From: Seison nebaliae
Taxonomy: Eukaryota
DNA length: 60,902 nucleotides
Assembly (NCBI GenBank): GCA_023231475.1
Contig: JALJEE010001842.1
Coordinates: forward strand, 1-60,902
Direction: 5' to 3'
In this document: piece by piece, positions 10,975-59,718 of the stretch
Numbering within the stretch: the stretch's first letter is position 1
Layout of the letters: each line of letters begins with the position of its first letter
Position numbers and translations under genes: made by a program
The notes under the pieces: generated by a model
Database searches by the model: none
What the model was told of the DNA's origin: nothing
Seen by the model: the letters and a program-made list of their open reading frames with translations, nothing else

Positions 10975-13900
10975 ATGACGTCAGATGTTCAAACGAATTT
11001 GCAATTACAATATCTGCAACCGATAAAAGAAGATCTTATCGAATGGTTGGGAAATTTGTATCAAATTGAAATTTCACCGAAACATTTCTGTGATTCGTTC
11101 AGAAATGGAGTGTTGTTGTGCGAACATGCGAATAACATGATAATGGCTGGGAAGACGGCTTGTCAGCTCGAGATTATTGATCAAGAAGAATTGAAGAAAA
11201 TACCAACCAAACAACTTTATTATTATAAGATTGCTAAAGTTAATTCACCAGCCGCTGTACATAATCTCAAACAATTTTTCGAATTTATCAAACAACTCGA
11301 CATCAAATCCGGTTTAGATTTCCTTCAAACTGATAATTATAAATCATGCTTGGAAGAGAAGAATATTATTATGTGTCTTTTGGAATTAGCAAGAATTGGT
11401 GCTCGTTTTGGCGTACAAGTTCCCACTATTATCAAATTGGAAGAAGAAATTGAAAATGAATTGAGTAATGAGGTTGAAGAGAGAAATAAAGACATTCCTC
11501 CAAAAAATGATGACAATGCATTTTATTCATCAAATGAACAAAAACTTCTTCATTCAAATAATAAGAATTATAATTCTGATGATAATTCAAATGATAATAA
11601 TAATGATAATAATAATGATGATGATGATGATGATGATGTAACTTGTATTACAGGAATAACAACACCAACTTATGTGACAAATAATAAATATAATAATTTG
11701 ACACAACCACCAACTGGTAATCCATCGAGGAATGAACAACGAGTGAAATTGAGACATTCAAATAAATCGAACAATGAATTCTCATCGAGGAATAGTGTAA
11801 TGAGTTATGCATCTTCTGCATTTACATCTGTTACAAATGCTGATAAGATTAGTCGAAGGAATTCTAATATGATTTCCGACGATTGTTCCAACTACTCTCG
11901 TCAGAGTTCCAATCGATTGAAAGAAAAGTTTAACTATCAGTTATTTGAGCCGATCGATTACGATATCAAAAGTGAACCGTCCACATTGTCATCTTCATCT
12001 TCCTCTTGTTCATCAACGGAGACTTCTTCGTTCGTTTCATCACATCAAAATTCAACGAACGACGAAGGAAATGGTGAAGGAAATTCGAGAAGTAGTTCAA
12101 TCGATCCAACTCGAAGAAAAACGATGACTTATGAAATTAGCGGAAAACGATTGAGTTCTGGTTCATCTCTTAGCACGACACAGCGAACAGTATCAAAACG
12201 ATCAACGAAACGAAAGAGATTGGTGAAAGATGTGACGGAATTAGAAATGATTAGTCAGAACAATGATGTAATGGATAATAATGGAATTGATCAGAAATCG
12301 GCATATTATCAATTTATTACTGAAGATTCTGTAAATAATTCTTATCTTCACAATAAAGTTCCATCTTTTTCTCTTCCATTCTAACTGTTCTTTCTCTCTC
12401 TCTCTCTCTTACAGGTAATTAAACAACTGTCAGATTGTAAATGTAGTGAACCATTCATTCTTAAACGGATTAGCGAAGGACAATACAGTTTGAATGAACA
12501 AAAACGAATTTTCCATTTGCGTGTTAATATCATTTTCTGGTCATTAGATTTAAGGGTTGAATTTCATTTCAAAAAATGATTTTCCGATATTTCTCACTAA
12601 TTATAAATCGTTATCGATCATCAATTAATGTAATAATCGATGTGAATAATTATTTTATTAAACGGTTGTAAATGTAGATTTTAATCGTAGTAGTTTGTTA
12701 GGGGAATGAATAAGAATATTTAGAATTTGATGATTATGAATACTTCGATGAATATTTTACTTCCCTTCCAGACGTCAGTATTGTCAATAGTATAGAATTT
12801 GATCTTAATATTTCGAAGGAACGGTAGAAGTGAATAGTGAGAAGATAATAACATTTCTTTTATTGGGAAGTGTCAAATTCGGTCCGTGATTGTGTAGCCG
12901 ATGACGTATCGGCGAACATAAAAAATGACTCTGATTATTAAGAAGTGAATATTGAATGTCTGGAATCGGATGGAATTGTTATGGGTATGAGAAAGGAAAT
13001 TATTTGAGAAGTTCCAATAGGCGAATTGTTCGATTTCCATTATTGAGTACTTGCTATTCAACAGGAGTATGTTTTGTAACGTACGAACGTTAGATGAATT
13101 ATTATGGAGGGAAGAGAAAGAGAGAAAGAAGAAAATCGAAAAGTTATTTTAAACGAATTTTTATCTGTCAAAGAAGATTATTCTTTTGTCGTTCTTTTAC
13201 CATTCTTACCTTTTATTGGGAATATTCAAAAATACTTAACCAACAATAACAATAAAATGATGAAGATGATGATGATGATGTAGTATGAGAGAAATTGTTT
13301 AGTGTTTATATTTCAATTGAACTGAATTGTATTTATTTCATTCATGATGTGGAATGAGAATAATTAATTCATGTTGAAAGATTTCCTTATATATTATTAT
13401 TATTATTATTATTATTTCCTACTGATTCGTTCTGTTGGGATGACCACGTGAATTTGAATAAGTTTAAATGTCAGATTAGATGATTGAAGAGATTATATAT
13501 CATGAGTTCGATAAGTTAAATGAGAAAATAGTCTGTGTAATCGACTTGACGATTTGTCGACATGTTTCCGATGGAATAATTCCTGACATCATCATGTCAA
13601 TGAAATAATGTAAACTATTTGTGAACAGTAACATTGTCAGTCGTCATAACGTCAATATATTTCAATGAATGAAAATGACCATTTGATGATTTGGTTTGAT
13701 TAGAATTAGAGAGAAAGGAGAAGTTGAATGATGGAATAGGATTCGATTAGAAAAAAGGTGTGACTGAAATGGTGGTGATGTGGATGAATTGTAAATAGAA
13801 TGAAATGATAAATAAAAGAATTTCATTTCTGATTTTTCTCTTTTGTTTATAAATAGATCCTGAGACAACATGTCATGATTCGTGATGGCGTTCTCTGGGA

Positions 13901-26950: not shown

Positions 26951-28114
26951 ATGTCACTATCTAGAGTATTGGGATTAAGTTCTGTTTTTGCCGCCGGTGC
27001 TGCCGGTATAATGCTGGCGAAGAATAATGAGAAGAATCTGTTGAATCGAGGAGAGACAGATATGGGAGAAATGAAGGCACAGAATGTTCGTCTGTTGAAC
27101 AAACGTCGTGTTTCACCCGATTCTTATATCTTCCAATTTGATACATCTCCAAAATCATCAATTGGTTTTCGCACTGGTGATTGTCTCGTCGTTCATGCAC
27201 CAAATGATGTGAAAGATAATAAAGGCAAACGATTATCTCGTCCATATACTCCAATCAATCAATTGAATGATGAATCAGGACATGTTGATTTATTAATTAA
27301 AGTTTATAGTCCAACAAAAACTGATGAATATGGTGGTCAAATGTCTCAATATTTAGAGAAGTTAAATATCGGTTAACATCAAATTTATTCATTTAAATAA
27401 TTCTCATTTAAATAATTTTCAGGTGATAAAGTTTCAGTGAGTGGTCCATATGGTTCTCTGACTTATGAGAAAGAAGGTAAATTTCTTAAACGAAATAAAA
27501 ATAGGGAAGAAAAAATGAATATAAAGGAAGATAATCTTGCCAATTATGATACCATTCAAACGGAAAATGTTGTGATGATTTGTGGTGGCAGTGGCATTAC
27601 ACCAATGTTACAGATGATTAAGCAAATTTTAAAAGACGAAAAGAAACCACCAAAAATTCATTTGGCTTATTCCAACAAGAAAGAGAATGACATTTTAGTT
27701 CGAAGTGAATTGGAATGTCTTTCGATGAAGTTTCCCGAGAAATTTTTCTGCGATTTCTTCTTGACAAGAGAACAAATTAAGAATGGAAAGAGTAAGGCAC
27801 CGTTATGTGGAGGGTGTGTGAAAGATGGTTCGGCAACAAAAATGATAAGTGAATGTGAAAATCGATGTACTTATAATGAGCCATCAATTATGTGTAGTCA
27901 ATGGAATAAAATCTCATCTATGTTCAAACAGTCGAATCAATTGGAGAATGTTCAATTAATGAACGGACGAATTGGGAAGAAAGATGTCCAACGTCTTGTC
28001 AAGAAGTCTAAAGAAACGATTTATTTGATTTGTGGACCTAAATCATTTACGAACGATATGAAAGATGAATTGAAGAATTTGAATGTGAAGGAATCGAATA
28101 TTCATTGTTATTGA
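26951..28114 (+). CDS. NADH-cytochrome b5 reductase family protein; exons 26951-27371, 27423-28114
   Basis: FAD motif RPYTP, DLLIKVY, GGQMSQYL, GPYG. NADH motif MICGGSGITPMLQ, YSNKKENDIL, C-terminal LICGP. Intron 27372-27422 (GTTAAC..CAG) is in frame. Confidence 0.93.
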
Positions 28115-29546: not shown

Positions 29547-32500
29547 ATGAATGAAGATAAAATGAGAATAATGATAATGGTTTTATTGATATTGGTGGTT
29601 CATTGTCAAAAGGAGATCACCATCCAATCTGATTTAGCATTTTTCGATAAAGTCAAACGTTCCTCCACCAACGATCACACGTTAGATAACTGGATTCGAT
29701 ATAAACATCCGTCGAAAAAGAAGAAATTACATATTGGTGGAATATTCCCAATGTCCGGTTAGTTATCGATTGATTTGTTCTTAATAAATATTTAATGATA
29801 TTGGTAGGTGGATGGGCTGGTGGAAGAAGTTGTTATCCCGCTGCTCGAATGGCACTTGCCGATGTCAATAGACAACCAGATATATTACCCGGATATTATC
29901 TCCATATGACAATGTATGATAGCGAATGTGTACCAGGTATTGGAGCGAGGAAATTTTACGATTTATTATACAATGAAGAGAGAATGGTGATGCTTCTCGG
30001 TCCTGGTTGTAGTCATGTTGTGACGATGGTAGCTGAAGCTGCACGTATGTGGAATTTAATTGTTCTATCTTATGGATCGTCATCTCCTGCTCTTACTAAT
30101 CGAAACAGATTCAAGACATTCTTTCGTACACATCCTTCAGCTGCTTTGAATAATCCGACACGAATCAAATTATTTCAAACATTCGAATGGACACAAATCG
30201 CCACTTTACATGAGACACAAGAAGTTTTCAGTACAGTTTGACTAACAAATATTTTATTCTTTCTTCAACATTCATTCATTCATTCATTCATTCATTCACT
30301 TATAGACAATCGAAGATTTAGAACGATTAACAAAGGAAGCGAATATTACAATTAAAGTGAGACAATCATTCCTCAATGATCCAACTGATGCAATTCGGAA
30401 TTTAAAGAAACAGAATGCGAGAATTATTGTCGGTGTTTTCTACGAAGATAAAGCACGACGCGTCTTCTGCAGAGTTAGACATTCATTTCAATACATTTCC
30501 ATCAATTCTTTCAAAGATTTTCAAAGAGAAAATGTATGGAAGGAAATATGTATGGTTCATTATCGGTTGGTATCCAGATGACTGGTATTTGAAGGAAGTG
30601 AAGGACGACGAATATTTTACTTGTACAAAAGAAGAAATGAGAATTGCCGTTGAAGGACATTTTACAACGGAAACATTGATGCATAATATGGAAAAAAATC
30701 GTATAACTGACACAGGTGATCGAATGGTTCTTTCTTTTTTTTCTTATCATTCTACTAATCTTTTATTTATCTCATATTATTTAGTCATATAATAAATTTC
30801 GTGTTCGACTTATATCCGAATTGGAACATGATTATAAAATCAATTTGACAACTGATCCAAATGCTCCTATGAAAATTGCTGGATTTCCTGAAGCGCCATT
30901 AGCCTACGATGCGGTTTGGGCAATGGCTTTCGCACTCAATCAAACATTAGCTCGGTTCCATAATTATTATTGGAGATTCCAATAACATTAATAAATTTCT
31001 CTTATGGTCTGATATAGTTTGAAGGAAGAAGGAAACACAAAATTGGAAAATTTCAATTATAAAAGTGGACGACATGTGATGAATATATCGTACTTCTATT
31101 TCAATAAAACGGATTTCGAAGGTGTGTCTGGTCGAGTGAGATTTACTGAATCGGGAGATCGTATTGCTCAGACACAAATCGAACAAATGCAGAATGGACG
31201 ATATGTCATTCTGGGAACACACGAATCAAAAGAAGATATTTATTGGGTATCGGGCAGTGTCGTACAATGGGTAGGTTCGTCTTATCATTTTGAAAGTTTT
31301 TAGAATTTTCATTTGAAATTCATTTGAAACATCAATTTCTCTTTCCACAAAATTATTTTCGAGATAATATTCTTTTCAAATTGAAAATTTTCATTTCAAT
31401 TCAGATGGAAGAAAACCGAATGATCGAACATTAATTGAACCAAAATTAATGAAATTACATTTGGGACAATTAATCGTTATGAACATTCTCGCTTCAATTG
31501 GTATTGTGGCTGGAATTACTTGTCTATTTGTCAATACGATTCATAAGGATAAACGGTTTCTTTCTCATCATTTCTTCAACTCTCGTCTAAACAACTTTCT
31601 CTCGTATTTTAGAGTGATAAAAAATTCCTTGCCAACTATCAATAATATGGTGACTTGTGGATTCTTAGCATCCTTATTATGTATCCCATTATTCTCTTTA
31701 GATACAAATGTTATTTCAGAGAAGACTTATGGTTTCCTTTGTTTATTGAAAGCATTGTTGTTGTCCATCGGATTTCTTTTGGCTTATGGTGCACTTTTCA
31801 CAAAAATCTTAATTGTACGAAATTATTCAGTGCAACAAAAGAGGAAAGAGAATCAAAATCGACAACCAATTCAACATAATTATTTATTAAAAAATAAATC
31901 GATCCTTCGAGTCTCTTCTTCCATTAAACGACAAGGAAGTGAATGGTCTCGTCGTTTACATAATAATCAATTAATCAAACGATTTATCAAAGATGAAAAT
32001 AATGATTCCGATGTTTTAACTGAATCTTCTGGAACGGCCGCTACCACTTCTGCAGGTAAACGAAGAATAAATCATTCATGGACAGACAATACTGATTTAT
32101 CAAAGAAGAATGATTCAACTTCCAGATTCTCATTCAATCCTTTAAGTTCTACGTCTAGTTCAAAAACGAAAAAACCTCATCATCACCACCATCATCATCA
32201 CCATCATCATCATCATAATGGATTTACCGACGATTTTCAAATAACTCGATTACAATTATATGGACCTGTCATTACATTTATTTTGATTGATATCATTTTT
32301 TTCGCCATATGGATCTGGACTGATCCACTCATTCGTAATATCACCAAATTAAAATTGGAACATCCTTTGAAGGATGTGGATGAATCATCACCTTTGGCAT
32401 ATGCTGACGTCATGTACGAATTACGAATGGAAGCATGTCGATCAATGAAATATCATACCGTTTGGATCGGTATCAGTTATGGATTTAAAGGAATGTTACT

Positions 32501-33172
32501 TTTATTGGGAACGTTTCTCGCATATGAAATCAGAAATGTGAAATGTCCTCTAGTGAATGATATTCGATTGGTGGCAATGTCTGTATACAATGTGGTTGTT
32601 CTATGTATTGTCACATCGACTGTCACACAAATTATTCAATCGACACAAGATGGAGTATTTGCTTTCGTTTCATTAACCATCATTGCATGTTCATTGTTAT
32701 CATTAGGATTAATCTTCGTTCCGAAAGTTCTTTTTAAATTTTTTTTTTAATTTTTTAATTTTATTAATTATTTTAGATCACCAATATTTATAAGTCGAAG
32801 GACTTGGTTGGTTTGGATGCATCGAAAACATTCGAAAGTTCGACAGATATCACTTTTGAAGAAGGTGAAAAATATCGGAAGTTACTCGTTGAAAATGAAA
32901 AATTGAGAACTGATATTATCGAAGTTTCATCTTTTAATATCATTCCATTTTATTTCCCTCGATTTAAGGCGGAAGAGAAATTAAAGGAGTTGACGGTTGA
33001 AATAGAAAATAGAATTCAACATGTTCAGGACCAAAATCAAGAGGAGAAATTGAGAAGACGAAAAGTGAGATTGATGAGAGAATCGAATATCAACTCAAAA
33101 GAAATTCCAACAATCAAAAATTTGGATGTGAATATGCCGCTCGTAAAAATCACGAATACTGATGAAGAATAG
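29547..33172 (+). CDS. GABBR1: GABA-B receptor subunit 1 (class C GPCR), ~10 exons
   Basis: Signal peptide; [93 protein letters not shown]; 7TM with [42 protein letters not shown]-terminal coiled coil. Nine GTT..AG introns restore the frame. Confidence 0.95.
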
Positions 33173-33494: not shown

Positions 33495-33849
33495 TCAAAG
33501 ATTCCGTCGACACCATTCGTCTAATGCATGACCTACTCTTTCAGCTGTAGATGTATCTGCTTTCATATCGCAGACTAACCAACGTTTAAAATTTAGTAAT
33601 GAACGATCAATTGCAAGAAATTTTCCTAATAATTGATACGCTTTGCAACAACATATCCTCTCTAAACATTCAGCAAGACATTCATCCATTCCCGGTATTT
33701 CGCGCACAGATTTGTGAGAAACAGTTGAACAACCAAAGTCTCGAACTTGTTCGTCGAACGACGCATCCTTAAGAGGGAAGAAATGTTGATAAAAAAACGA
33801 AGAAAAAATGAACTGGTGTTTCGAAGATCCAATCGAATATGATGCTCAT
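33495..33849 (-). CDS. Barrier-to-autointegration factor (BAF/BANF)-like protein, divergent; exons 33849-33814, 33767-33495
   Basis: RDF.....HKSVREIPGMDE.L...LE.....KAYQLLGKFL......FKRWL....A........LDEWC..L aligns without gaps to BAF (RDF...EKPVGSLAGIGEVL...DKAYVVLGQFL...FREWL...LREWC). Intron 33768-33813 is GTTCAT..AAG. Confidence 0.85.
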
Positions 33850-35175: not shown

Positions 35176-36375
35176 ATGAAGATCATCATTGTTTCTCTCA
35201 CTCTCATTTCGATGAGTTATGCTTATTCTCATTCGAGAATGATGAATAATGTTCCAATAATGAATTCGAAATGCATAAATGTTCAACCAGTACGATTATT
35301 GGAGGGATATGATGGAAATCAGACACCGTTCATAAACGATTTTCAGAAGAAATCGAACATTTGTGCAGGAAAACAAATCAATGAAAGATTTGCTCATCCG
35401 ACAAATGAAGGAATGTATATCGAATGTGGATTTGATGGAGAGAAATTCGAACGAATTTGTCCTCCTAAAACAAAATATGTCGTCGAATATGGACAATGTA
35501 CTTTAGGCTTCCCATTAACTAAACCGTGAATCAATTGAATCAAGTTTGTATAAAAGATCCGATTGCTCGTTGTGAATGTAAAGAAGGATATAATGGACAA
35601 TATTGTGAAATGAAGATCGATTATTGTAGAAAGAATCCATGTAAGAATGGTGGTATTTGTACTTCATATAGTACAGGATATACTTGTTTATGTCCAAATA
35701 ATTTTTATGATGATGATTGTTTGAATGTTCAAATAGATAATCCTTGTCGTGTTAATGAGATGGCTAATGGAATTCATATTTATTCCCATCCAAATGATAA
35801 TACAAAATTAATTTAATGTTTCGCTTATGAAGCCGCTTCCGTTTTATCTTGTCCACCTGGATTGACATTCGATAAAGAAATTCGAACTTGTCTCTCTAAC
35901 CAATATCAACAAGCGATTACTAATGTTTTGGAACAACAGAAATGTTATTATTTTATCTTTTATCTCAACTCCCAATTTCTTCTCATTTACAGATCAAGCA
36001 ACATTTCCAAAATCATGGAAACCATCTAGTGATCCATTACGTATGCCATCAATTGTCAGCGGATCTGCTAAGCTCATTCCTTTCGATCATAACCAGAAAC
36101 AATTTTAAGAACAATCACAACAAATCTTCATTCAACCATCAATGCCAATCAAACAAATACAACCATCAATACCACCTCAACAATCATGGTCATTGAAGAA
36201 AATGATGAACTTCCAAAATCCCATCATTCTCCAACAACCATATCAACAGAAACAACAACTTCCTACCATCCAACAATCATCATGGTCATCATCTTATCAA
36301 TCACCAAAATTTCTCGAACAGAAATCGCAACTTTTGAATAATACTCCCGTCAAATTGAATAATGGAGGATATTGA
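35176..36375 (+). pseudogene. Secreted chitin-binding (CBM14/peritrophin-like) + EGF-domain protein with Gln/Pro/Ser tail; reading frame disrupted
   Basis: Signal peptide MKIIIVSLTLISMSYA; CBM14-like C...FAHPTN...YIEC......CPPKT.Y....QC; EGF CECKEGYNGQYC and CRKNPCKNGGICT..TGYTCLCP...C; second CBM14-like HPNDNTKLI*C....SCPPGLTFD...TC. Lesions: frameshift at ~35527, in-frame TAA at 35814 and at 36106. Intron 35944-35992. Confidence 0.75.
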
Positions 36376-37369: not shown

Positions 37370-38421
37370 TCATGCATTTCCTGAATTTTGCGAATAACGA
37401 TTTTTTGGTGTATTGAAATTGTTCTTATGTTGAATTTGATGGTATTTTTTTTTTGTTTTCGATGGAACATCAACACCCAAATTAGGAAAATCGGAATCGC
37501 CCAAACTCCCCACATCGAATTCACTTGGAACTTTTGTTTGACGGTTGTATGGTTTCTGATTTTTTTGTCCATTTCTCTTCAAGTAGTTATCTTTGTAACT
37601 TTTAAATTCTTTTTTAGAATTGAATATGAATCTGGAAGAAAAAGTGAAACTTAAGAAATCAGACGGATCGCTGTAGTTTGTCGTTTTCTTCTTTTTTGGA
37701 ACATTTGCCATTTCGCTTAAAGACAACCATTCGGCTCGTCCAGTTGCCATGAATTCAGTCAATGTCATTCGTTCAGTCAATGTTTCTCCTTTCTGTTCTA
37801 ATGTTCCATCTTCTAATTGACCAGTCTTCTTTTCTGTTTCATTTTCCTCTTTATCATGTTGGAGAGCATGCTCCAAATCATTCAATCCATCAATCTGACT
37901 CTTTTGGGGATCACCAAAATTATATGGTCCATCACCGCCACGTTTATTTGGAGGTTTGATGGTGGTATGTGAACCTGAATGACGATCAGTTTTCGCAGAT
38001 CGTTTATTTGAAACTATAATGAGGAATGATGAAAATTAATGAATAAAATAAAATGAGGGAACTCTTCTGATCATTAATTGGAAATGGTTTTTGAGAATGT
38101 TGCTGATTCTTCTTATCTTTTTTCTTGTCTACTATAGAAATGAGTATATATTAATATTTATATCTATATATACATCAATTAAAGAAATTTAAAGAAACCT
38201 TCATTAATATCTTTTAGTGCATTCAATTTCTTTAATAAATCGAATCGATTCGTCGTCGAACAACTATACTCACCATTTTCCGTATCCGAATCATCGCTAT
38301 CATTCAATTCGACACAAACATAATCGATCTTGTCACACTCGTCGGTGACTGGTACGAAGTGCTTCTTCTTGTACATCTTCCCCGGAACTAATACTGATAC
38401 TGATGTGTTTTCACTTGTCAT
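37370..38421 (-). CDS. SERBP1/HABP4 (PAI-RBP1, Vig/Stm1) family RNA/ribosome-binding protein; exons 38421-38199, 38131-38063, 38013-37370 (possible extra 42-nt in-frame intron)
   Basis: The spliced product contains NRFDLL, DRHSGS....PNKRGGDGPYNFG, MTLTEF and DSDFPNLG, matching family motifs N.F..L, DRHSGS..KRGG.G..NWG, EMTLDEW and FPAL. Introns 38132-38198 and 38014-38062 are GTT..AG. Confidence 0.75.
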
Positions 38422-42600: not shown

Positions 42601-42885
42601 ATGGAATAATTGATGATTAATTGTCGATTGATGATGATGGTGATGATGATGATGATGTTTAGTTCTCTGAAAGGATTGAGTGGACAAAAATCGAAGAAAT
42701 GCTAATGACAAATGAGTCGTTGACAAATATGATGAATAGAATTGATGTCTCTTATCCGTTCCAATATAAATCCGTCGACATTCTAATAAACGATTGACAC
42801 ATTCATTCTCATTAATCGATGAGTGAAATGGTCTTTTCGTAACAATACGTCTCATACATCCGGTCGTATTCTTTCGCCGAACCAT
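39658..42885 (-). CDS. Large SOCS-box protein with low-complexity N-terminus and probable beta-propeller-like C-terminal region
   Basis: Uninterrupted 1075-codon ORF. The C-terminus PL...TLKECCRRSILRYI......LPLPASLVSFL is a typical BC-box + cullin-box SOCS motif. The preceding ~300 aa show repeated beta-strand-like segments (AAIISPDETLLLV, VFRVQYTRDGSLICV). True start uncertain. Confidence 0.75.
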   Translation of the reverse strand: MVRRKNTTGCMRRIVTKRPFHSSINENECVNRLLECRRIYIGTDKRHQFYSSYLSTTHLSLAFLRFLSTQSFQRTKHHHHHHHHHQSTINHQLFHQFFSSSSPSSSSSSSSSTSKKNEKNRKMKEENKNRNFLKINEKFLKRINNSSISLKRFQKSISKSPSSLTNDNSRLRIDENNKKNDDRFHQMKRHHSSCSSLMKVRDDDLEGEISFYSNFLQGNKIFPNSATISPLNQKMMSNEERIISLNRSYSLHSISERVSFNRNEIVEQNLLFSSSNKVPSSSLSLKKVEENKMKDVSQIFLKKTITRMKGRTSMDVNNKRCEHETISPTMKYGEQTESIQFDNSKEQMFVNRGQTTTFDWRNDRVKHHYYLGDVKNELNIRNNLNEWKRKNYGPFCIDYNEWICGENLVYGHYSNFDVCRLLEDNSMQTSIHSLSTQSTISSPSTTSTLILSSHSTLSNMSNTTTINSNISLTCSMFQFKNTLKTFNNSSSTTSISSLSSALLSTTTTTTITTPSAISIISSISSCGSNFSMTNPFDNGIASSIGMGNNFKKYSSKFHVFNSTTTSNIHPISHSNLLLSPSQFNQSSFYPITNQKQVNIPPSIIYKKLLFCSMPDDSHLIDDNNNNTSFRNHFSKKSKKTNRINDETFDDESQKDEDDYLELENDDNNVTMPTITNSPTATTINSTINSSSSSSSSSTTQTTTTTTGNNRRTNRMDENDICFLNHVNGRIFKSLERRGDSQFVIRELISSDQKTIIEDEMIITLPIALDRYPVQHLFPHVREVLARLNRVIGYSPHLVVFQTWKGNDESDIFIYDLRQRQPIARRLYRVFNARTYAAIISPDETLLLVTPDYDDSHSFAQASNVEATLIFSIESCNVIRATSARCDQRFAFDPRFAHNRLAEFDTVGGQIVDLRYIRPILQANHTLKTKVFRVQYTRDGSLICVVCTLPIFHRKKSRDFFIYILNSSTLLHMMQIIDFTAPANGAFIFSNTYTLLFSMYPSISIYSDTIALIRHINADPREREIVLYSLPLVATSTLKECCRRSILRYISPHFIPYLPLPASLVSFLLYKQFVDE

Positions 42886-44194
42886 AATTTCCTTTGCTCA
42901 TAATCATGTGTGGATGATGATGGTGATGATGGAAATAATCGAAGAAATTATTTCATTCAATTATTTTATAGTCAGAATGGCATTTCTTTTTCAGAGATTT
43001 CACATAAAATTATTGAATAAAAACAGAAGAAAAAACAAATTAAATTACTTTCTACCTTTTCCCCACACATTATTTAACACAAAATTATTTTTACCAATAA
43101 TTCCCTCAATGATTTGTGGATGATAAGACTTATCATTCGAAATTGAGAACATTCCAAAAATTTCCTCTAACAACCATCAACATATTCGATCTATCATTAT
43201 TATCTTCATATCTATCAATCTCTATAATAATCTCCATTTTTATTATCGATTTTTTTAAAGAAATTTTTCAGTCATTAAAAACCTCGAATCTAATCTTTTC
43301 CATAATTGTTAATTGATCACATGATTATAAAATATTCATTTCGTTATTAAAATATCTAATGTCATCTAAATTCACCGATCAAATTAATAATCCAATTTTA
43401 AGTTCCAAAGACATTCCCTCAGATGTCCAACCTATCACAATTAGCTAATCGACTTATTCAATTTCCATTATGATCAATAACTGTCGTGAAATATTTAAAA
43501 AAAGATAAAGAAATAAATTTATTGAAAAGAAAATATAAAGAAATGTTGAAAGATTCTTTAAAAATTTATCTCTCAAGTAGCTGATAAAAGTAGAATAGAG
43601 TAACAAATAATTTTCTGAAAAGTCATCTTTGAAAATTAAAAAAATTTTTGGGCTTATCAAACCATAATAACGACCATGTAATCTGGTACCATTATAAGGT
43701 TTGGTTTATTCGAGAAACTATTTTTTAATATTTTTTTATTTGAACTTCAAATTTCCCCTCGAACTTTTGAAAAATAATTTTAGAAAAAACTCATCGAATT
43801 TGTAGAGGTGTTGAGGCTCTTTTGACTTATCTCTATTTCTTAGTTTTATTTAATTTTCCTCTATATTTCTTTAAAAGATTTATATCAATCTCTAAGATAT
43901 TAAAACTTTTTTTAAAAAAAAATGATTGAAATAGTTCACACATCTAATGCTTCTAAATTTACATTTACCTCTTCTGCAAATTGTCTACAGTCAGGTTCTT
44001 AACAAATAATCAAAGATTTCATGTGAAAAAGATGCAGTTTTTGTTTTCTTCATATATGATGAGCGAGGAGTGGAATGGAAATAGAGTTTCTTGGAAGAAC
44101 TTTTAACAGCTCGTTTAGAAACTGTACCACATCGAAACGTGGTACATGTGAGAGAATGTTAAGGGATGAGGTAGTGTACCGATGGGTGTGGATG

Positions 44195-44203
44195 GTATAA
44201 ATA
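44195..44203 (+). promoter_or_regulatory. Candidate TATA box
   Basis: GTATAAATA in a locally G-richer context about 60 nt upstream of ATG 44261. Confidence 0.45.
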
Positions 44204-44260
44204 TAGATGGAAATGTGCAGATATCGTTATTAGTAGATTAGATTTAGATTAGTCTTAAAC

Positions 44261-45874
44261 ATGATTCGTACGATCATCATCTTTTTAATTTTGGGGAATG
44301 GAATATTGTGTTCTAGCGAACTGGAGAAGGTTAACAATGCCATGGCCGATTTGATAAAGAATGTTGGAGAATGTGACGAGGAATGTTATGAACCGAAAAT
44401 GATGCAATTCAGATTGACGAACAATGCTAGTACAAAATTTGAATGCTCTACGGGAAATATCAAAATGCATTACTTCCTCGTACAATGGGTGGACAACAAT
44501 GAATTAGTGAAGGAGTGTAAGAGTTCTATGTGGTATGATGTCATTTTGGGGAACTGCGACAGAAAAATGTCTTGTGATGTCTCGATGGAGAATATTGATG
44601 AAAGGTGTCGAATTGCTTTGAAATGGATTGATATCGATTATTATTGTATGGAACGAGAACCTCAAACCGTTCTTCAATGGATTTACTTCGATATACCTTT
44701 CATTTTTCCAAAGAAGATGATAACTCATCTTCGAGAACGACGACAATTCATCACTCATCATGGCTCTGCTCAAGCACAAGGTCAAGCACAACGACAAGGA
44801 CAACGACATCAATCGATTGGTTCTGGATTTGGTAGTTCATTCGGCACTCAACAACAAATGCAACAACAGCAACAACAACAACAACAAGGATCTCATGGTT
44901 CTGGATTTGGTGGTTCATTCGGTGGTCAACAACAAATGCAACAACAAATGCAGCAACAACAACAAGGTTCACATGGTTCTGCGTTTGGTGGTCAACAACA
45001 AATGCAACAACAGCAACAACAGCAACAACAAGGATCTCATGGTTCTGGATTTGGTGGTTCATTCGGTGGTCAACAACAAATGCAACAACAACAACAAGGT
45101 TCACATAGTGCCGGTGTAGGTCATCGTCGACCGATTTCACAATTTGGAACTACTGCTCAACATCAATCACAACGACAACGTCAATTACAAGCTCAAAGAC
45201 AAGCACAAAGACAAGCACAACGACAAGCTCAAAGACAAGCTCAAAGACAAGCACAATTACAAGCACAACGACAAGCACAATTACAAGCACAACAACAAGC
45301 GCAAAGACAAGCACAAAGACAAAGTAATAGACATCAAAGTGGTGGATTTGGAGGACATCGAACACAAATTGGAGTTCAACAACAACAACAACACCAACAG
45401 CAAACTCAACAACAAAGTGGTAGCAGTTTGAACAATATTTGGGAGAATTTTTATACGAATTTCTTCCAATCACCAACTGTTGCCGTTCGTAATAGTAATA
45501 TTCAACAACAAAGACAACAACAACGACATAAAAGTGCAATTATACATTCCAAACGTGTAATTTCCACTAGTCAATATTATGAATTAATGAATCAATTGGT
45601 TCAACAACAAAAACAACAACAAGAACAATTGCAAAGTCAACAACAATTGCAAAAACAACTTCAACAACAACTTCAACAACAGTTGCAATCTCAACAGCAA
45701 AACCAGAATCAACAAACTAATGTACAAGTTGTTATTCAAGAGGATGAACGACGAAAGCAAAGAAAAGCCAGAAGAAGGAAGAATCGACGAAACCGAAATC
45801 GTAATAATTTCAATAATTCCTTCAATGATAATTGGCAATGGAATGGTTTATCTCGAATGACACATTGGCACTAA
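44261..45874 (+). CDS. Secreted protein: signal peptide + Cys-rich SUEL/galactose-rhamnose-lectin-like domain + RERR site + Gln/Gly-rich repeats; intronless
   Basis: Signal peptide MIRTIIIFLILGNGILC. The segment CDRKMSCDVS..NID..C....KWIDIDYYC resembles the SUEL lectin pattern C.GK.SC.V...N....C....KYL.V.Y.C. Then come (QQQMQnGSHGSGFGGSFGG)n and (QAQR)n repeats and a basic tail. Confidence 0.75.
   Translation: MIRTIIIFLILGNGILCSSELEKVNNAMADLIKNVGECDEECYEPKMMQFRLTNNASTKFECSTGNIKMHYFLVQWVDNNELVKECKSSMWYDVILGNCDRKMSCDVSMENIDERCRIALKWIDIDYYCMEREPQTVLQWIYFDIPFIFPKKMITHLRERRQFITHHGSAQAQGQAQRQGQRHQSIGSGFGSSFGTQQQMQQQQQQQQQGSHGSGFGGSFGGQQQMQQQMQQQQQGSHGSAFGGQQQMQQQQQQQQQGSHGSGFGGSFGGQQQMQQQQQGSHSAGVGHRRPISQFGTTAQHQSQRQRQLQAQRQAQRQAQRQAQRQAQRQAQLQAQRQAQLQAQQQAQRQAQRQSNRHQSGGFGGHRTQIGVQQQQQHQQQTQQQSGSSLNNIWENFYTNFFQSPTVAVRNSNIQQQRQQQRHKSAIIHSKRVISTSQYYELMNQLVQQQKQQQEQLQSQQQLQKQLQQQLQQQLQSQQQNQNQQTNVQVVIQEDERRKQRKARRRKNRRNRNRNNFNNSFNDNWQWNGLSRMTHWH
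44815..45325 (+). repeat. Coding tandem repeats: GSHGSGFGGSFGG-polyQ units (~4) followed by 12-bp QAQR units
   Basis: ggatctcatggttctggatttggtggttcattcggtggtcaacaacaaatgcaacaa recurs, followed by repeated caagcacaaaga/caagctcaaaga units. Confidence 0.9.
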
Positions 45875-46423: not shown

Positions 46424-46455
<32 letters not shown>

Positions 46456-48122
46456 GCTGTTGTTGTTGTTGCTTGATTATAGCAACTAATAATGATGAAT
46501 ATATACCTTGCATTAATGATGTATTATTATTGATATTGTTGTTATTGTTATTAATATTATTGTTGTCGTAATTATTAACGTTGTTATTGTTCTTATTAAT
46601 ATATCTATCGGATGATCTCAGATTCTCCAAAAGTTTTTTAACAGCAATATTATCTGATTCGAACATTTGTCTCTTCTCTTCGTCATGAGTTGCTTCATAT
46701 AATTTAGTTGTCGACGACTTATCCTCATATAGACAAGAGTCATCTTTTTTCATATTTTTTAGGACTGATATCATCAAATTTTCATGAATCAATTTCGATT
46801 GTGATGGTATTGTTTGAGTGGATGGTATTTGTGCTGAAGGGTCAATTGGTGCAGGTTTAGAGAAAATTGATGGAAATGGTTTGGTTGTAACTTCTTTAGT
46901 TGTTCGACATAATTTCTTACTAATCACATCTTCAGGTGCCAATTGTCGTTTACGACTCGGTTTCTCAATAGAATCCACTCTCTCTTTACATTCATATGAG
47001 TCGTCTAATATCTGATTGAATTCCTTCGTTTTATTCGAATCATTTAATTCCCCAGTATTTATAGCTGACGGTTGACTGAAAGATGAAGTTGACGAATTTT
47101 CGGATGATATTGATTTATTCACATCTATTAAAGATTTGGATGTGTCCAATGTTGACATTTCACCAATTTGTCGTCCCCTTTTTTGTTTCCGCCATTTAGC
47201 TCGACGGTTCTTAAACCATACCTTTTTGTTTTCAAATGAATTTTAAAATATAAAGATATATTGTTATAAGGAAATAAATTTTTGTAACTTCTACTCTTTC
47301 TTCTTTCAAATTAATTTTTAATGCTAATTCATCACGTAACATAACGTCGGGATAATGAGTTTGGGCGAATGTGCTCTCCAATTTCTCTAATTGATCTTCA
47401 CTAAATATTGTTCGATGTCTTCGCTTCCTTCGCAATGGTTGACCATTATTTGTGAATCTTTGTTCATCGATATGATTCTCATCTTGTCGTCCTGTCTGTT
47501 GATATTGTTGTTGTTGTTGTTGTTGAATATTCTGATCGACAATTTTAGTTCTTTGTGCTAAATGTGCATCAATTGGAAGACATTGAAATTTATTTTTATT
47601 AAAATCAATTGATGAATTTCCTGTCGGTTTAACATGATCAGAGATCGTCTCAGTTAATTGAGAATCGAAAGAAGATAATAATTTCGATGAGGTTGAAGAG
47701 AATGGTGATATTGTATAAAATGATTCATTATTCATTGAATTTCCTTCTTTTTTCATATTCGAATAATAATTTAGAGATCTTTGTTGATCATTGAATGATA
47801 ATGGAATTTGTATCGGTTGTTGTTCCGCTTGTTGTTGTGAATTCCAAATAATTTGTTGTAAATTCTTCTCCGCCGTATCGTTAAATGATTCATCAACTAT
47901 TCCAATTTTAGATATCGGCTTCTGTTGTAGTTGTTGTTGAGAATAAGAGTTTCGAGTTTGATGGTCCAAACGTTGGAAAAGATTCATAAAGAAATTCATA
48001 TAATTCGCATTCGAACCGTTGTGAACAGAATTGACGATATTCGTTGACCGAATTGTTCGATTTTCGGGATATCTCGACAAAACTGAATTATCATTCTTTC
48101 CAATCAATTTCTCACTCATCAT
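46160..48122 (-). CDS. gsc: Goosecoid homeobox protein (PRD class, K50), ~631 aa; exons 48122-47289, 47221-46160
   Basis: Homeodomain [63 protein letters not shown] is diagnostic of goosecoid. Intron 47222-47288 (GTTACA..AAG) lies at the typical PRD-class position. Confidence 0.93.
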
Positions 48123-51100
48123 ATTGGAATTGGAAAAGTTTCTAATGGCTAGACATGAGAAAATGAATTTACTTTCATAAAATTAAAATAAACGATCTGA
48201 TTGTTGAATTTGTTCATTGATCAATGTATTTATGGAGAACAAATTTAATTGTCGTTTCTCGTTCCGATCAACAATCGATTGTGTCTTCTCATCACCACAA
48301 TGAATTTTCCTTTGGCTTCTTGACAATACGTCACTAGATAACATAATTATCTGACAAGGAGAATTTGATAACGAAATGAAAAGTTATCGATAAAAACAAT
48401 TAAAGAAAATCTTATTCCAAAATATAATAAAACTAAAGAATAATTCGCTTCGTTTCTATCCCTGTCATATCCGTTCAATATATTCTTAGTTTCTCTTACA
48501 TTACAAGAAATAATATGAATTCGAGAAATCTCATTGCTAGCGAGAAATACCGGAAATCTTTTTACAATATCAAACGATTACATTCTCCCGATTACTTTCG
48601 ATAAGAAAACATTATTACAAATAATTACATCGTTTCGTCCTATTTTATTAAGTTCCATAATTTTAATATAGTCCAATAATTTCGATAAACGAATAGAAAA
48701 ATAAAATGGAAAAAAATTTTCAATCGTTAGAAATATAAACTTTTTAAAACTTAATAAACAACAAAGGCACAAACTAAAAGTTCTGTTACTCTAAATAAAA
48801 AGTGGTAAGGAAAATATTAATGAAAATAGAACGATTGAACTGTATTGTGAAGCGCATTTGAACGACGCTTCTCTGATAAGAAACAGTTTCTTTTTTGATT
48901 CTAATTGTGTTTATTTATTTGAAATGAGAAGAATGTGGAATTTAACAATAAATCGTAACGGTATTATATCTGATTTTGAAAAGAAGAAGCACCGTTAAGA
49001 TGTGTTTTGAAGAATTCAGATAATGATTCAAAAACGGAGTGTTTTTTTTATATGTCTGTCATTAGTGAATGGAAGGAGTAATTTAGAGACATTCCTATTT
49101 AGCAGACTGTTTTTCTTTTTTCAAAAGATAGATCAGAAGAATTTCCTTCCGATCAAATGTCGTTCAATCGAATGTGAATTGGAGGATAGTAAGATGATTT
49201 TCAAAAGAACTTATTTCAAAAGAAATTAAAACAATGAAGAAAAATGGAGTGACGAAATGTTCGATCGATGAAAGTTAATGAAATGAAATCGATCGAATTC
49301 AATGTTACTCTATACAATTGATGAATGGATCTTGAAAATATTATTAATTCGCTTGATATCTTTACAATTGGAAAATATTTAACTCTTTCCTTTCTTTACT
49401 TTATTTCTTTCTTCGATGATTCTCGAATAAAACTAAAGAAAAGAACGAAACAATTAAGAGATACGCTAACTAGAAAATATTTCATATGAAAAATTAATGA
49501 AGATGAACGATAGAAGTTCAATTACAATAGAACAAAAGTCGTATCAGTATTAAGAATAGTTACTGTAAATAATAATATAGGTGAAAAACTACTAAAAAGA
49601 TTTCAATTCGACAATGATAATTTGAATTCGATCAAAATTTCCCCCTTATTCTTCTTCTTTCGGGAAAGTCGATGGAGGAGATAGAACAAAGATTCATGAT
49701 CGGATTGAGAGAATAGTTTCTCTGAAATTAAATTAAATTATCTATTCTCCTCTATTCTTCTATCTAATTCATCATCATTGTTGTGACGAGTGAATTATTA
49801 TCATTTTGACCAATCATTATCGATTAATGAACGATATCGTTTAATCAAAAAACAACGAATATGAAATCTGTTAATAAAATAAGAAGAATCAATTTGTTTG
49901 CTCATTGGATTTGATGACGTAATTGGATGGTGGAGGGGAAACCGGTTTAGATATTTATTCTGAGTTGAGAAATGTTGATGAGTCGATAATCGATAAAGGA
50001 TTTTTTTTGGTGTAATTCTTTTCAATTGAATTTGAGTAAGAAATGAGTTTTGTCGTCAAATGAAATTTGTTAATTTGACTAGTTGTTTGGAAGTAAGTCG
50101 ATTGACGATTGGTTTATTAATCGACATAATTCGTCGTCGATTGTATTAGAAGACGGAATGATGAAGGAGAGATGGATGGAGGATAAATGAAGATTGATAA
50201 AGGTTTTTGGAGGAAGAAGAAATTGATTCGATCTTCTTTTCGATATGATTCTCGTTGATGATATCTCGATTGTTATTTTTGATTAAACTTCAACTCCAAT
50301 TGGAAAGTTGACATACAATAATGATGTTAATCAATGAAAAACATATACGTCGATTTGATTGAATAAAATAAAATGTTGAATATCACCACATAACGGCGAT
50401 ATGTTTCTTATGATCATCGATATTTCTGACAATCACCAACAAGAGAATAAACATCCCATATTCTCTCGTCGTTTAACTAAACATCATTTTCTTCGAATGT
50501 GTATTCGTGTAAATTTATGACACTATAAAATAAGTAAACGCGTCATATAGCGGTTGTTGTTAGGGAGGGCAGAGCGAAAATGAATGATCAAACAGTATCG
50601 GAAGATTTCCACTGAAAAAAGAAAAGGTAAAGTAAATTAAAAAGAAATTTCTTTTCTTTTATATTTGTCAATATCGATAATAGAATCAAAAGAATTTACA
50701 TTTAATGTTACTGGCCAACTCAGTCATACTATAACTAGTAACTTGTCGAAGATGATTGTAGGTAACCGTAGTCAGACTACGGTAGTCTTGAGAGAAGTTG
50801 AAAGAAAGTTTGTCGCGCAATCAGTTCGCTCTCGGGTTATGAAAGGCAAAAAAATTTAAGTGAAATTTTTTGTGGGAACGATTGTTTATTGGCACACTTC
50901 ATTGAACGAGATATATAGCCCGCCAAAATGAAAGGACTAAATAAAAGGAACTAACTATACTATCAATCCATGCACCATTAGTATAACCATTACCACAAAC
51001 AATTGGTAATACATTCCATTCGCGTCATCATAAATGGAATCTCTACTGAAACTATTAGAATTACTCTTCAATTCAATCCATTTCCTTCTATTCTAACTAA

Positions 51101-54100: not shown

Positions 54101-54332
54101 AGAAAAGTACTAACAATGAATAAGATGATTCAAAAAAAAAGGTAAAAAATAGATTCGTTCCAATGAATGTAGAAAGAGAGAGAGAGACAGAGAGATTATT
54201 AAAGGATGAAATGGTTGGAAGCAGATAAATTGCTATTATTTGTAATCTTTTGGAATAATTGTATATTTTTATGAAACTAATTTTACACAATTTTAATGAA
54301 ATATAAAGAGGTGAAAAGAAATTTTTTTTTCT

Positions 54333-56141
54333 TTACCAAATAATGTTTAATCGCTCAATATTTTGGTAGTCACATAGAGAATCGATATCCTTCTTGAATT
54401 GATGGAAGGAGGGGAGGAATGATGATGTTGATTTAATTTCAATCAATTCCAAATGAGAGATTGGCCAGTCGTTAATGTTGGCAGATGAGGAAGTATCGTT
54501 CAATTCTGTTTCTTCATCAATCGGTAATGCGTTCAAACAGGACGAGATAGCAGATAAAGAGAAAACATATTGATGTTGATCATAATTAATCGTATTCCTC
54601 TCTCGACATAAGAAACAACTTTGATCGATCGATCCACTCAATTGTTGTTTCATTTGAATAAATCGTTTAATTTGGTCTATGGATGAGAAGACACATCGAT
54701 TGACACGGAATGAATCCTCAATACTATCCGCCATCATCGTACATAAATTATTATCATAATCCAATGGTAGACGATAATAAACGTCTCTAAAATATTTCAA
54801 CCAATTATTCATATTTCGATTAGTATCCTCTGTTTGACATTCAACAATTTCACCTCGTTCTAATAAAGCATAAATGAATGCATCACCAATAAATTCTTTC
54901 ATATTATTCGCTTTCAATCGTTTTAATCGTTTCAAATATTTGTTTCTTAAAACGAATGCAGCTAAATCAAAACTCGATTTCTTTATAGAATTACAAGCGA
55001 ATTTTGAATCATCTGTATCGTCCCATCCCGAAATATTTAATTCGACGATATTTTTACACAAATGAATGAATTTGATAAGATCTTGTGTCGTTATACAGAT
55101 ACTACCACTCACATCCAGAACTTGAACGAATCCTCCTAAAATTTTATTGTTTATTCTCGTTGGTAACATTTGAGTAAGAAGCCAGTTGGTGCATCGAATT
55201 TCTTTCTTTTTCTTTCGAATTTCTTCTCGTCTTTTCTTTTTCTTCTCTCGTTTTTCATCTCCTTCATTCCAATCGATTAATTGTCTATATGAGATGATTT
55301 TCCATATATTTGGATGTTTTAATAAATTATAGAAAGTGTGATTAGTTCGACTTAATCTACACATATCTCCCAAACTCAAATATTTCATCACTTCTATTTG
55401 AATACTCAAAGGCAATCCAATGAAGGATCGTCGTGTTCGATTTAATTCTTCTCTTATTTCCTTTAAATTAATTCCTTTCAATTCCATCGACATTAATGAT
55501 GATTCTGTTTCGTTATCGATTTCTTCGATTTTTGTTGACGTTTCATTTAAAACAGAAAGAATTGACGTTTCAATAAGAACTTGATCGGCATAACCATAAA
55601 TCTCATCTCGATGTAATTTGATGACGGAATTCCTCATTGTAAGTAATTCACCGGTTGAGAAATAACCGCAGAGCATTGGTTGAAAAATATCCTCCTCCAA
55701 TTTCATATGTGGCAAAAAGAAATTTTTGAATTTTAACATTTTCTTCTGCAATTCCGCACACATTAATCGAAATTCGAATGTATTATTATGTGAGAGAACG
55801 ATATCTCCATTCAAATCAATTCCGATACGAATAGCTGGTTCCAATATGTTGAAAATAGGAGTAATATAATCATGTGAATGACATTCACAAACTAATTTCA
55901 TTTCCACTTCATTCTGTTTCTCAATCTTCTCTTTCAATCGTTCTAAAATTATCGTATTTTCAATTCGTTCATGAAAAAGAAATTCATTGAATGTTCTCTC
56001 AATATTCTTCAACGAATTCAACGTCTTCTCCAAATTACATTTGTGTTCGATCTCGTAACATGCATTCCTTATTAATTGTCGCATGCGTAAATGTGGAGTG
56101 AAGAAGACGTCAATTTTTCCTTCTTTGAGAACTTCCATCAC
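54333..56141 (-). CDS. FBXL5: F-box/LRR protein 5 (hemerythrin iron-sensing domain + F-box + LRR-like region)
   Basis: Hemerythrin motifs DVFFTPHLRM..L, FHERIEN..I...L, HSHD, FLPHMKLEEDIFQPML..YFS..EL. F-box LPLSIQIEVMKYLSLGDMCRLSRT....Y.L...P.IW. The 3' end may continue past a GTAAAG donor near 54336. Confidence 0.88.
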   Translation of the reverse strand: MMEVLKEGKIDVFFTPHLRMRQLIRNACYEIEHKCNLEKTLNSLKNIERTFNEFLFHERIENTIILERLKEKIEKQNEVEMKLVCECHSHDYITPIFNILEPAIRIGIDLNGDIVLSHNNTFEFRLMCAELQKKMLKFKNFFLPHMKLEEDIFQPMLCGYFSTGELLTMRNSVIKLHRDEIYGYADQVLIETSILSVLNETSTKIEEIDNETESSLMSMELKGINLKEIREELNRTRRSFIGLPLSIQIEVMKYLSLGDMCRLSRTNHTFYNLLKHPNIWKIISYRQLIDWNEGDEKREKKKKRREEIRKKKKEIRCTNWLLTQMLPTRINNKILGGFVQVLDVSGSICITTQDLIKFIHLCKNIVELNISGWDDTDDSKFACNSIKKSSFDLAAFVLRNKYLKRLKRLKANNMKEFIGDAFIYALLERGEIVECQTEDTNRNMNNWLKYFRDVYYRLPLDYDNNLCTMMADSIEDSFRVNRCVFSSIDQIKRFIQMKQQLSGSIDQSCFLCRERNTINYDQHQYVFSLSAISSCLNALPIDEETELNDTSSSANINDWPISHLELIEIKSTSSFLPSFHQFKKDIDSLCDYQNIERLNIIW

Positions 56142-56813
56142 TCACTAGATCGTTTTTATTCCCGAAAGGAAATTCATTAGGCAATTTATCTTTCTCTATT
56201 CTCCTCCATTCATAAAGAAAAAGAAATGAGAAATTAATTGTTATTTGAGATGATGTCATAAAATATTAATATGTTTCTTCTTTAATAAGAAATCATTCAA
56301 GCGATATATCACCACAATCATCCACCTCTATTCCACTATTGATCCAGGAAGTGATCGCTTTCGATAAATAGAAAGAACAGATAACTATTATTAACGAAAA
56401 ATGATAATTGAAGAATAAATTGAAATTAAATTTTATAATTTAAGCTTAAACTTTAAATATCAAAAAATTTAAAGTAATAATTTCTCATGAATTTCCATCA
56501 CAATCTTTCTCCACTCTTCCATTTACCACCAATAAACGTATTTCCTCTATACACATTATTTTGTGTAGACGATATTCCTTTTTTTGGAAATCCAATTTTT
56601 TATTATACATCTTATGAATGAAAATTCTCAATCCATTTCTAAATTTTCCACTTTCGTCTATTTATATATACACATAATCGATTAACATATCAATCGTTCG
56701 TTGCCCACATGTACAAATTGATATGTGTTTGAATACAAACGAGTTTTAACTGAACTATAAAGAAGTTAATCTCGTCTCTCACCCCTCCCCACACCCTCCA
56801 TCGATATTGACCA

Positions 56814-57347: not shown

Positions 57348-57884
57348 CTCGTTTCTAAAAAGGAATAATTGAAATTCTCTTTCATCATTTATCTTTTTTC
57401 GTTCGTCTCAATTCTATTATATCACATTCACAATACTCGAAACTCAACAATAATTAATTGGGTCGATAAATAATAATAATAATAATCATCAAATAAATAA
57501 ATAAGAAAATAATTTTCTTTAATATTCTTTAAGAGAAATCGGTTAATGTTGTTGTTTTTTCCGAATATGAAAATTATTTTTCTCCTTTCGACATTTCCAA
57601 CTCTTTTGACTTTTTCTTCAAAAAGAAACAACATTTCTGTTTATTTCCTCTATTAATTTTTTTCTTTTTAACAACTAAATGACTAATTAATTCGAATTAA
57701 TATTGAACATAAAAAAACAAAATTAAAAAAATATTTTTTTTTTTTAAATTAAATTTCAAATTAGAAACTGTTTGCATCACGGTGAAAAAAATAAAGATTG
57801 GAAGAAGATTCATAGACACATTCGAATTATTAAAGAGAGAATCAATTTTGGAAGTGGAAAAATACGCATATAGAATGAGACAAT

Positions 57885-59718
57885 ATGATGTCGTGTTTCA
57901 ATCAAATCAATCGTTTTTATATCAATACAATTTCATATTGTTTAAGACCGACATGTCTTTCATCAATCATTCATCTCAACGCATCAGTTAATGATCAATT
58001 GAATTATTCGACCAATTCGTCGACGTCAAATGTGTCATCGACGGATGTGACATCGAAAGACACCGGACAAAACTTAATAAGTTTATTGGAATTGAAGAAA
58101 CGTGAAGAGGAGACACTTCAGAAAAGAATGAATGGAATTCTTTCTCGTTCATCTAAAAAGAATGATGAGATCGTCTCTCCAACTACTTCTCCTACAATGG
58201 AATCGTTGAGAAATGATATTCAATCACGAAAAATCCGTTTCCATCATGAACCGCCCGAATATTATCCCGATAAGAAATCGGTGAATGATAATTGTTCGAA
58301 AGTTCAGACGGAAAAGAAAACTTTTTCACTTCATCGATTATCTGGGAATACTCGATCTCTCGTTTTGATTAAAGGAGATGAAGCTGCTACATTCCTTCAA
58401 GGTATTTTAACTAATGATATTCTTCATCTCAAAAAACGAGATTGTTGTTATTCATTTTTATTAAATGCTCGAGTTAATTTTTTTCTTATTTCTCTATCTA
58501 AAACTATTATTAACAATCTCTCATGTTTATAGGGACGAATATTATATGATGCTATTGTTTATCGATGTGGCGAGTATGATCATTTATTCCCATCATATAA
58601 AGGAAATCAATCATTTCTATTAGAAGTTGATCGAAAGGCAGTAAATGATGTGATGAAACTTCTTCAACTATATCGTTTAAGAAGACAAGTTCATTCATTC
58701 TTTTTTTATTCGATTTCTTGAAATTAATGAAATCTTTTTAATAAAAATATCTTTAATAGATCTCAATCGATGTAATATCACGTGATATTATTAGTATTTG
58801 GACAGCTGTTCCCATTATTAATTCGATGGAAGATCATTCTTTAGAATTGTTGAAATTTTTTTTTGAAACAAATTTCTCGATCATTAAATAATTTTAAATA
58901 AAATAGATATGGCGATTCAGCAGAAGAGATTGTCATTTCAATGAATCAAGATCCCAGACATTCGAGTATGGGATATCGATTATTGATTGATGAACAATCG
59001 ATGATTGTTAATTTACGTCAACCTTCACCCATTAATTGTTCGTTATATAAAATCTCTTTTTTTTTTATTTATAATTATTTTCTAGTAAATAATCATTTGA
59101 CTGATTGTCGTTCACAGGAATTAGACGCATTACATTATCGTCGATGGTTATATTCGATTGGTGTTTGTGAAGGATATGAAGATATTCCTCTCAACAAGGC
59201 TATTCCATTTGAGTATAATGGAGATTTGTTGAAAGCCATATCTTTTGATAAAGGATGTTATATTGGACAAGAATTAGTAAGTAAAACTTATCATACAGGT
59301 GTCATTCGAAAACGAATCGTTCCCATCAAATTAATAAAGTTTTTCTTTCAAAAATTTATTCTCCCAAACATTTTCTCTCAAAACATCAGTGTTCCATTAT
59401 GTGAATCACAACGCGATTCTATGATTTATATTGGAGACAATAACAAACCGATCGGAAGAATTCGAGGAAATGTTGGAGAATATGGTGTGGCTCTATTGAA
59501 GATGGAAGATGTAAAAACCATCATCCAAAAACAAAATGATTCGTCACCAAATTCTTCATTTCTCACTTGTCGAGGAGAACCTGATGGACATGAAGTTTCG
59601 ATCAAATCCATTTTAATCTTTTTCATTTTCTCTCTTTCACCAGATTAAAATTAGAATATCAATTCCACAATGGTGGCCAAAAGATTCGAATCATTTATCG
59701 AAAAAATTATTTTCTTAA
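57885..59718 (+). CDS. IBA57: IBA57/CAF17 (YgfZ family) mitochondrial Fe-S cluster assembly factor, 7 exons
   Basis: RSLVLIKGDEAATFLQGILTND, FLLNAR|GRILYD, L.LYRLRR, DPR, signature SFDKGCYIGQEL..KTYHTGVIRKR, GVALL, C-terminal PQWWP. Six GTT..AG introns. Stop at 59716-59718. Confidence 0.93.

Follow-up and report, generated by a model that had tools for sequence, protein, structure and literature searches.

A donor code with U at intron position +3 is already published for Entamoeba and hence known outside animals. Donors there read GUUUGU(U), GUUUG accounting for 97-98% of them, and the U1 snRNA has co-evolved to ACAAAC, with changes opposite these positions in each of the five species (10.1101/2022.06.08.495308). 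In Saccharomycotina, loss of METTL16/SNRNP27K goes with a switch from +4A to +4U while U1 and U6 are unchanged, and retention of SNRNP27 is linked to greater +4A tolerance (PMC10581693). Few parts of animal gene expression are as well conserved as the pairing by which U1 and U6 recognise the start of an intron. Seison nebaliae (Seisonidea, Syndermata) is a small relative of rotifers that lives on crustaceans, and its genes are compact, in a genome of some 44 Mb (PMC8351084). Both its genome and its transcriptome have been published, and genomes are also available for 24 relatives. We analysed one contig of this animal (the window, 60,902 nucleotides at its full length), on which 40 of 42 donors read GTT (95% interval 84-99%), counting 38 donors from gene models and four seen in RNA only.

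Gene models and introns of the window

The Seison nebaliae database proteins SNEBB_009004 and SNEBB_009005 map exactly to the window. Ten gene models were built on the basis of reading frames and of Pfam and PDB matches. They contain 38 GT-AG introns, 37 with GTT and one with GTG (the first YIPF6 intron); the first-pass annotation had counted about 37 GTT introns in ten genes, and these independent models reproduce its count gene by gene. Database gene models were excluded as proof of donors because one of them, P0122 (YIPF6), has a probably false intron: the 64-nt GTT intron 25551-25614 takes the protein out of the Yip1 frame and is probably a prediction error. The intron-bearing features are as follows.

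12358..13856, + strand: GAS2-like gene; introns 12358-12414 (GTTCCA) and 12523-13856 (GTTAAT, 1334 nt)
17584..19895, - strand: CAPS; GTT donors at 19895, 19697, 18942, 18590, 18375, 18198, 17961, 17806 and 17650
19386..19445, - strand: CAPS cassette exon of 60 nt, followed by a GTAATA donor at 19385; from transcript alignment, not in P0001
24928..25729, + strand: YIPF6; GTGAGT at 24928 (ambiguous), GTT at 25053, 25174, 25271, 25475 and 25680
27372..27422, + strand: cytochrome b5 reductase-like gene; GTTAAC; FAD- and NAD-binding domains flank the intron, and read-through meets a stop
29758..32968, + strand: GABA-B receptor 1 (GABBR1); GTT at 29758, 30236, 30474, 30727, 30955, 31275, 31556, 32727 and 32924
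33768..33813, - strand: BAF-like gene; GTTCAT; PDB match to BAF, exact in RNA
35944..35992, + strand: EGF-repeat gene; GTTATT; from translations, the weakest of the set
37609..38198, - strand: SERBP1-like gene; GTT at 38198, 38062 and 37650 (the last RNA-only); Pfam HABP4, all three in RNA
47222..48193, - strand: homeobox gene (goosecoid-like); GTTACA at 47288 and GTTTAT at 48193 (the latter RNA-only), both in RNA
56385..56451, - strand: F-box gene, 5' UTR intron; GTTTAA; RNA-only
58473..59643, + strand: IBA57; GTT at 58473, 58689, 58849, 59038, 59339 and 59595

GTT donors are thus present in all eleven unrelated intron-bearing genes and on both strands. Reading through the intron is impossible for 33 of the 38 model introns (24 by frameshift, 9 by a stop) and open in five. 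No in-frame non-GTT rival lies within 30 nt in 28 of the 38, and 27 of these 28 use GTT. Frames stay open beyond the last junction in nine of the ten models, the exception being the EGF-repeat gene. The 1334-nt intron of the GAS2-like gene, which the first pass had already singled out as a 1.3-kb intron with GTT, holds up both by the frame test and by the Pfam GAS2 domain, which it interrupts at profile position 41; for the first intron of this gene, a competing GTA lies in frame 27 nt upstream. Database protein P0001 maps to CAPS with GTT at 9/9 donors. The YIPF6 models rest on the mapping of P0122, the Pfam Yip1 frame and the frame test, and the GTGAGT donor at 24928 has an in-frame GTT rival at 24943, 15 nt downstream. 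IBA57 has a PDB match to IBA57/CAF17 and a spliced frame of 498 aa, two of its introns being open read-throughs. The homeodomain match of the homeobox gene stops at profile position 46. A search of the protein database found no Seison GABBR1 protein.

Other features of the window were recorded alongside. The sequence at 24925-24933, probably the first donor of YIPF6, matches the canonical CAG/GTGAGT almost perfectly, a consensus otherwise lacking on the contig. In the EGF-repeat gene (35177-35992) the frame changes near 35525 with no usable intron, and an in-frame stop lies at 35814-35816; two DNA runs match the region, and another contig aligns to 35452-35502 at 7 differences. This gene is probably a pseudogene with a paralogue. 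Long open frames that need no intron encode a DUF4505 protein (26007-26660), a SOCS-box protein (39661-42897), a glutamine-rich protein with a weak SUEL lectin match (44237-45871) and an F-box protein (54336-56141).

Donor-blind alignment and transcript junctions

The donors were recovered by a spliced aligner that admits any GT (or GC) donor at flat cost, with no preference at +3, using profiles of 18 GABA-B receptor and 39 CAPS homologues from which Seison was left out. It returned 9/9 GABBR1 and 8/9 CAPS donors, all GTT; the CAPS donor that it missed adjoins a polyglutamine insertion. Three extra 'introns' were called inside open frames (GC, GTT and GTC), which we read as skipped lineage-specific insertions. 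Forcing non-GTT donors lowered the GABBR1 score from 865 to 722 bits (-143) and that of CAPS by 291 bits. When each donor was banned singly, at least 8 bits were lost for 14 of the 18, and 0 to 5.7 bits for four.

RNA-derived junctions came from a published file in which Trinity transcripts are aligned to the assembly with GMAP (PMC8351084, Additional file 2), where at least 17 transcript rows among the 19,906 listed lie on one contig whose coordinates equal those of the window. Among these rows 17 junctions were found, 16 with GTT and one with GTA. Twelve introns match the models at both ends and a thirteenth is the CAPS donor that the aligner had missed, which brings the predicted donors confirmed to the base to at least 13 among the rows listed; the other four donors are new from RNA, three GTT and one GTA. 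The latter, GTAATA at 19385 in CAPS, is the sole RNA-supported non-GTT donor among the rows listed. Eight of the nine predicted CAPS donors appear in the listed transcript alignments, and RNA also supports YIPF6 intron 25053-25094. The listed rows hold no junction for 25 of the 38 predicted donors and no row for the GAS2-like gene, GABBR1 or IBA57. Both listed transcripts across CAPS intron 18157-18198, and both across the four later YIPF6 introns (25174-25729), still contain these introns, which could be due to slow splicing, pre-mRNA or DNA carry-over. Real donors at nearby GTA or GTG sites were checked for and rejected, as RNA moved no predicted donor among the rows listed. Among the sequencing runs matching the window none was listed as RNA, and the run contigs compared carry no splice joints and behave like DNA, which gives no information on expression.

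Donor composition, controls and intron history

GTT makes up 41% of all GTN in the window (2142/5170; GTA 1034) and 37% of decoy GT sites in the analysed genes (272/737), and the bodies of short introns are 49% T and 4% G. Against any of these backgrounds (37%, 41% or 49%), 40 GTT among 42 donors gives P ≤ 1.3e-10. The GTT excess on this contig is confirmed as real and survives the correct background. The accompanying argument that AT-richness should yield GTA about as often as GTT was mistaken, since GTT is twice as common here by chance (2142 vs 1034).

As a control, the same aligner was run on 80 metagenome CAPS loci and gave 109 distinct introns, from which 27 poorly anchored and 2 GC introns were removed to leave 80 GT donors. 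GTT was found in 4/80 of these (7/98 before the filter), in 1/16 of AT-rich and in 0/22 of short introns, both subsets being drawn from 79 introns of 26 loci with slightly different de-duplication. Composition was consequently rejected as the source of 40/42, being matched neither by backgrounds of 37-49% nor by the AT-rich controls (1/16). In a quick tree that included 21 of the metagenome loci, none fell beside Seison CAPS, so the controls are without a rotifer; a YIPF6 scan of viral contigs gave no match.

Beyond +3, little of the usual donor signal is left. Position +4 (A16 C10 G1 T15 in 42 donors) has A near intron background, at 16/42 vs 48/80 in the controls, and both +4 and +6 onward equal intron background (KL ≤ 0.13 bits). 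G at +5 occurs in 7/42, above the 4% of intron background (P=0.0015) and well below the controls (58/80), and G at -1 in 13/42 vs 60/79. The first-pass annotation had described +3U as fixed and the +4 signal as lost, a description now backed by homology, RNA-derived junctions and the same-method control. Its further statement that +4 to +6 show no consensus stands for +4 and +6 and fails for +5, where information is reduced rather than lost. All 38 model introns and all 17 RNA junctions (rows listed) have GT...AG termini, and the donors do not follow a GTRAGT-like consensus (+3R 2/42, +5G 7/42).

Several known donor types were tried and rejected: the U12-type (minor) class (RTATCCT 0/38), the strict Entamoeba hexamer (GTTTGT 0/38, GTTTG 1/38) and GTT donors in a shifted register, with the consensus one base on and G at +6 (+6G 1/38). 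Nor was the +4U signature of METTL16 loss seen, T at +4 (15/42) lying below the 49% of intron background.

The introns are short, 35 of the 38 measuring 42-71 nt, and the longer ones (130, 252/600 and 1334 nt) likewise use GTT. Requiring GTT instead of GT leaves a unique donor 40-75 nt upstream of the acceptor in 25/35 short introns vs 15/35. The branch-point motif YTRAY was found near the acceptor in 20/38 introns, against a shuffled mean of 17.3, and 117 of 500 shuffles reach 20.

Seven of the nine CAPS introns have a position and phase in common with one of two metagenome loci, L050 or L073, which group with arthropods in the quick tree and whose donors at the shared positions are GTA or GTG in 10/10 cases. 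Existing ancestral introns were thus converted to GTT rather than inserted anew, and introner-type gain was rejected on the same grounds. A divergent contig (run X4, depth 2.4, a single contig) spans intron 17756-17806 and keeps GTT at 17806 unchanged; among those listed of its 40 differences, at least 16 substitutions and at least 6 gap letters fall in this intron, and third codon positions hold 12 of the 14 listed in exons.

Reading of the intron start

U1 position 6 pairs opposite donor +3, and U6 C42 is the partner of +5G. A +3U preference of 95% requires a reader that favours U, and the Seison splicing machinery has likely changed the way in which it reads intron starts. We put a U1 change first because Entamoeba, the published +3U case, changed its U1. 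If U1 snRNA carried A instead of pseudouridine at position 6, this base would pair with +3U. The probable loss of METTL16, which methylates U6, would release the +4A preference, and short length together with G scarcity would supply the remaining information, amounting to intron definition. The U1 change opposite +3, taken with METTL16 loss, may explain the GTT donors, with a likelihood that we place a little under even. Such an A6 would raise the mean Watson-Crick matches of Seison donors from 4.0 to 5.0 of 9, still below the 6.4 of control donors with a normal U1. Counting against a U1 change are the GTA donor used in a transcript and the probable CAG/GTGAGT donor.

The interpretation given in the first-pass annotation is supported in part. 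It had also suggested altered snRNAs or reader proteins, and some of the proteins it named are covered by the published BUSCO sheet. Of the 25 syndermatan genomes there, only Seison has METTL16 scored as Missing and the remaining 24 have it, while SNRNP27 and PRP8 are Complete, as are PRP6, PRP31, PRP38B, ZMAT2, DIM1, MFAP1, KIN17 and CBP80 (PMC12256650). The rows retrieved from the same sheet also score U5-40K, LSm2 and SPF45 as Missing in Seison, and ZMAT5 in Seison and both acanthocephalans; the portion retrieved gave no entry for U1-C or LUC7 (PMC12256650). The METTL16 score could reflect sequence divergence rather than loss, because Seison is scored as lacking 356 of 954 BUSCOs, including 76 that are not scored missing in the acanthocephalan compared (PMC12256650). 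The window gave no Rfam match, hence no snRNA gene, and a U6 motif search gave none in viral contigs and 15 loci in genome contigs, all from other organisms. These 15 loci lie in bacterial genome records (L007-L010 and L013 were also noted), which points to eukaryotic DNA in the bins; one contig binned in a bacterial MAG (L004, L014, L015) carries repeated clusters of U1, U2, U4, U5, U6, SRP and 5S genes.

Readings centred on U6 or on a protein stay live because a GTA donor works once and most atypical-donor lineages retain an unaltered U1. U1 is unaltered in 227 Saccharomycotina genomes with atypical donors (PMC10581693) and in Giardia, Trichomonas, Thecamonas and Micromonas (10.1101/2022.06.08.495308), although the donor changes in all these lineages are mainly at +4. 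If U1 were canonical, the choice could fall at the U6 step, where, with A43 left unmethylated by METTL16 loss, +3U would pair with G44 by wobble, or with an A replacing it, and nucleate the U6/donor helix. G44 of U6 lies opposite +3, where its contact with the usual A or G is only weak (PMC11732430). An ACAGA that has not changed could offer GUUUGU better pairing (10.1101/2022.06.08.495308), and METTL16 is scored missing in Seison only, LSm2 and U5-40K being scored missing too. We nevertheless regard this as rather unlikely, since METTL16 loss in yeast accompanies +4U and the greatest variation at +4 (PMC10581693), +4U being 15/42 here, +5G is available to C42 in 7/42 only, and the G44 wobble is open to all eukaryotes that still prefer +3R. 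It is less probable again that both snRNAs are canonical and that +3U is recognised, under intron definition, by an altered protein (U1-C, LUC7, a TIA-1-type U-tract binder or PRP8). The signal is limited to +3, unlike that of a U-tract binder, with +4 and +6 onward at background; introns of 130, 252/600 and 1334 nt use GTT too, and PRP8, SNRNP27, ZMAT2, DIM1 and KIN17 are scored complete. This protein reading draws on donor pairing that is weak with any form of U1 (4-5 of 9), on the G-poor, T-rich bodies of introns mostly 42-71 nt long, and on the canonical U1 of most atypical-donor lineages (PMC10581693; 10.1101/2022.06.08.495308).

That the excess is compositional, local to the contig or an annotation artefact seems to us highly improbable. 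GTT is the commonest GTN in the window, the database YIPF6 model has a probably false GTT intron, the sample is one 61-kb contig of a 44-Mb genome, and 25 of 38 predicted donors are without an RNA junction among the rows listed. Against these points, GTT heads 16 of 17 RNA junctions and three of the four unpredicted donors (rows listed), recurs across eleven unrelated genes on both strands, and is rare in AT-rich and short control introns.

Under the U1 change with METTL16 loss, Seison would be the first case of an animal whose 5' splice-site code has been rewritten: ancestral GTR donors in their thousands would have become a three-base GTT, along with a compensatory snRNA change and loss of U6 m6A. 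We advance this proposal tentatively and at slightly less than evens. Our search, mostly outside subscription journals, found no report of a GTT-type donor code in Seison or any animal, and the acanthocephalan genome paper nowhere mentions splicing or introns; large cross-species logo surveys may contain related cases. With its +3 base swapped across old introns, this intron-rich animal offers a natural test of which reader, U1, U6 or a protein, determines that base and, if METTL16 is indeed lost, of what the loss does in an animal. Given a GTT code, annotation of the Seison lineage will go wrong when it relies on donor models from other animals.

Seison introns are of the GT-AG major class with a degenerate donor, yet the donors fit neither of the known animal donor classes (-1G 13/42 vs 60/79 in the controls, +5G 7/42 vs 58/80). 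As in the Saccharomycotina that lost METTL16, this gene is scored absent in Seison and +4 no longer favours A, with SNRNP27 kept. Whereas their change is at +4, in Seison +3 is fixed to U and +4 is without preference. With Entamoeba it shares a near-fixed +3U (97-98% GUUUG vs 95% GTT), a host-associated life and the major spliceosome. Entamoeba, however, is intron-poor with a strict donor of six to seven bases and a demonstrated U1 change, whereas in the animal Seison the CAPS and GABBR1 genes have 9-10 introns, the donor is of three bases, and the U1 change is so far predicted.
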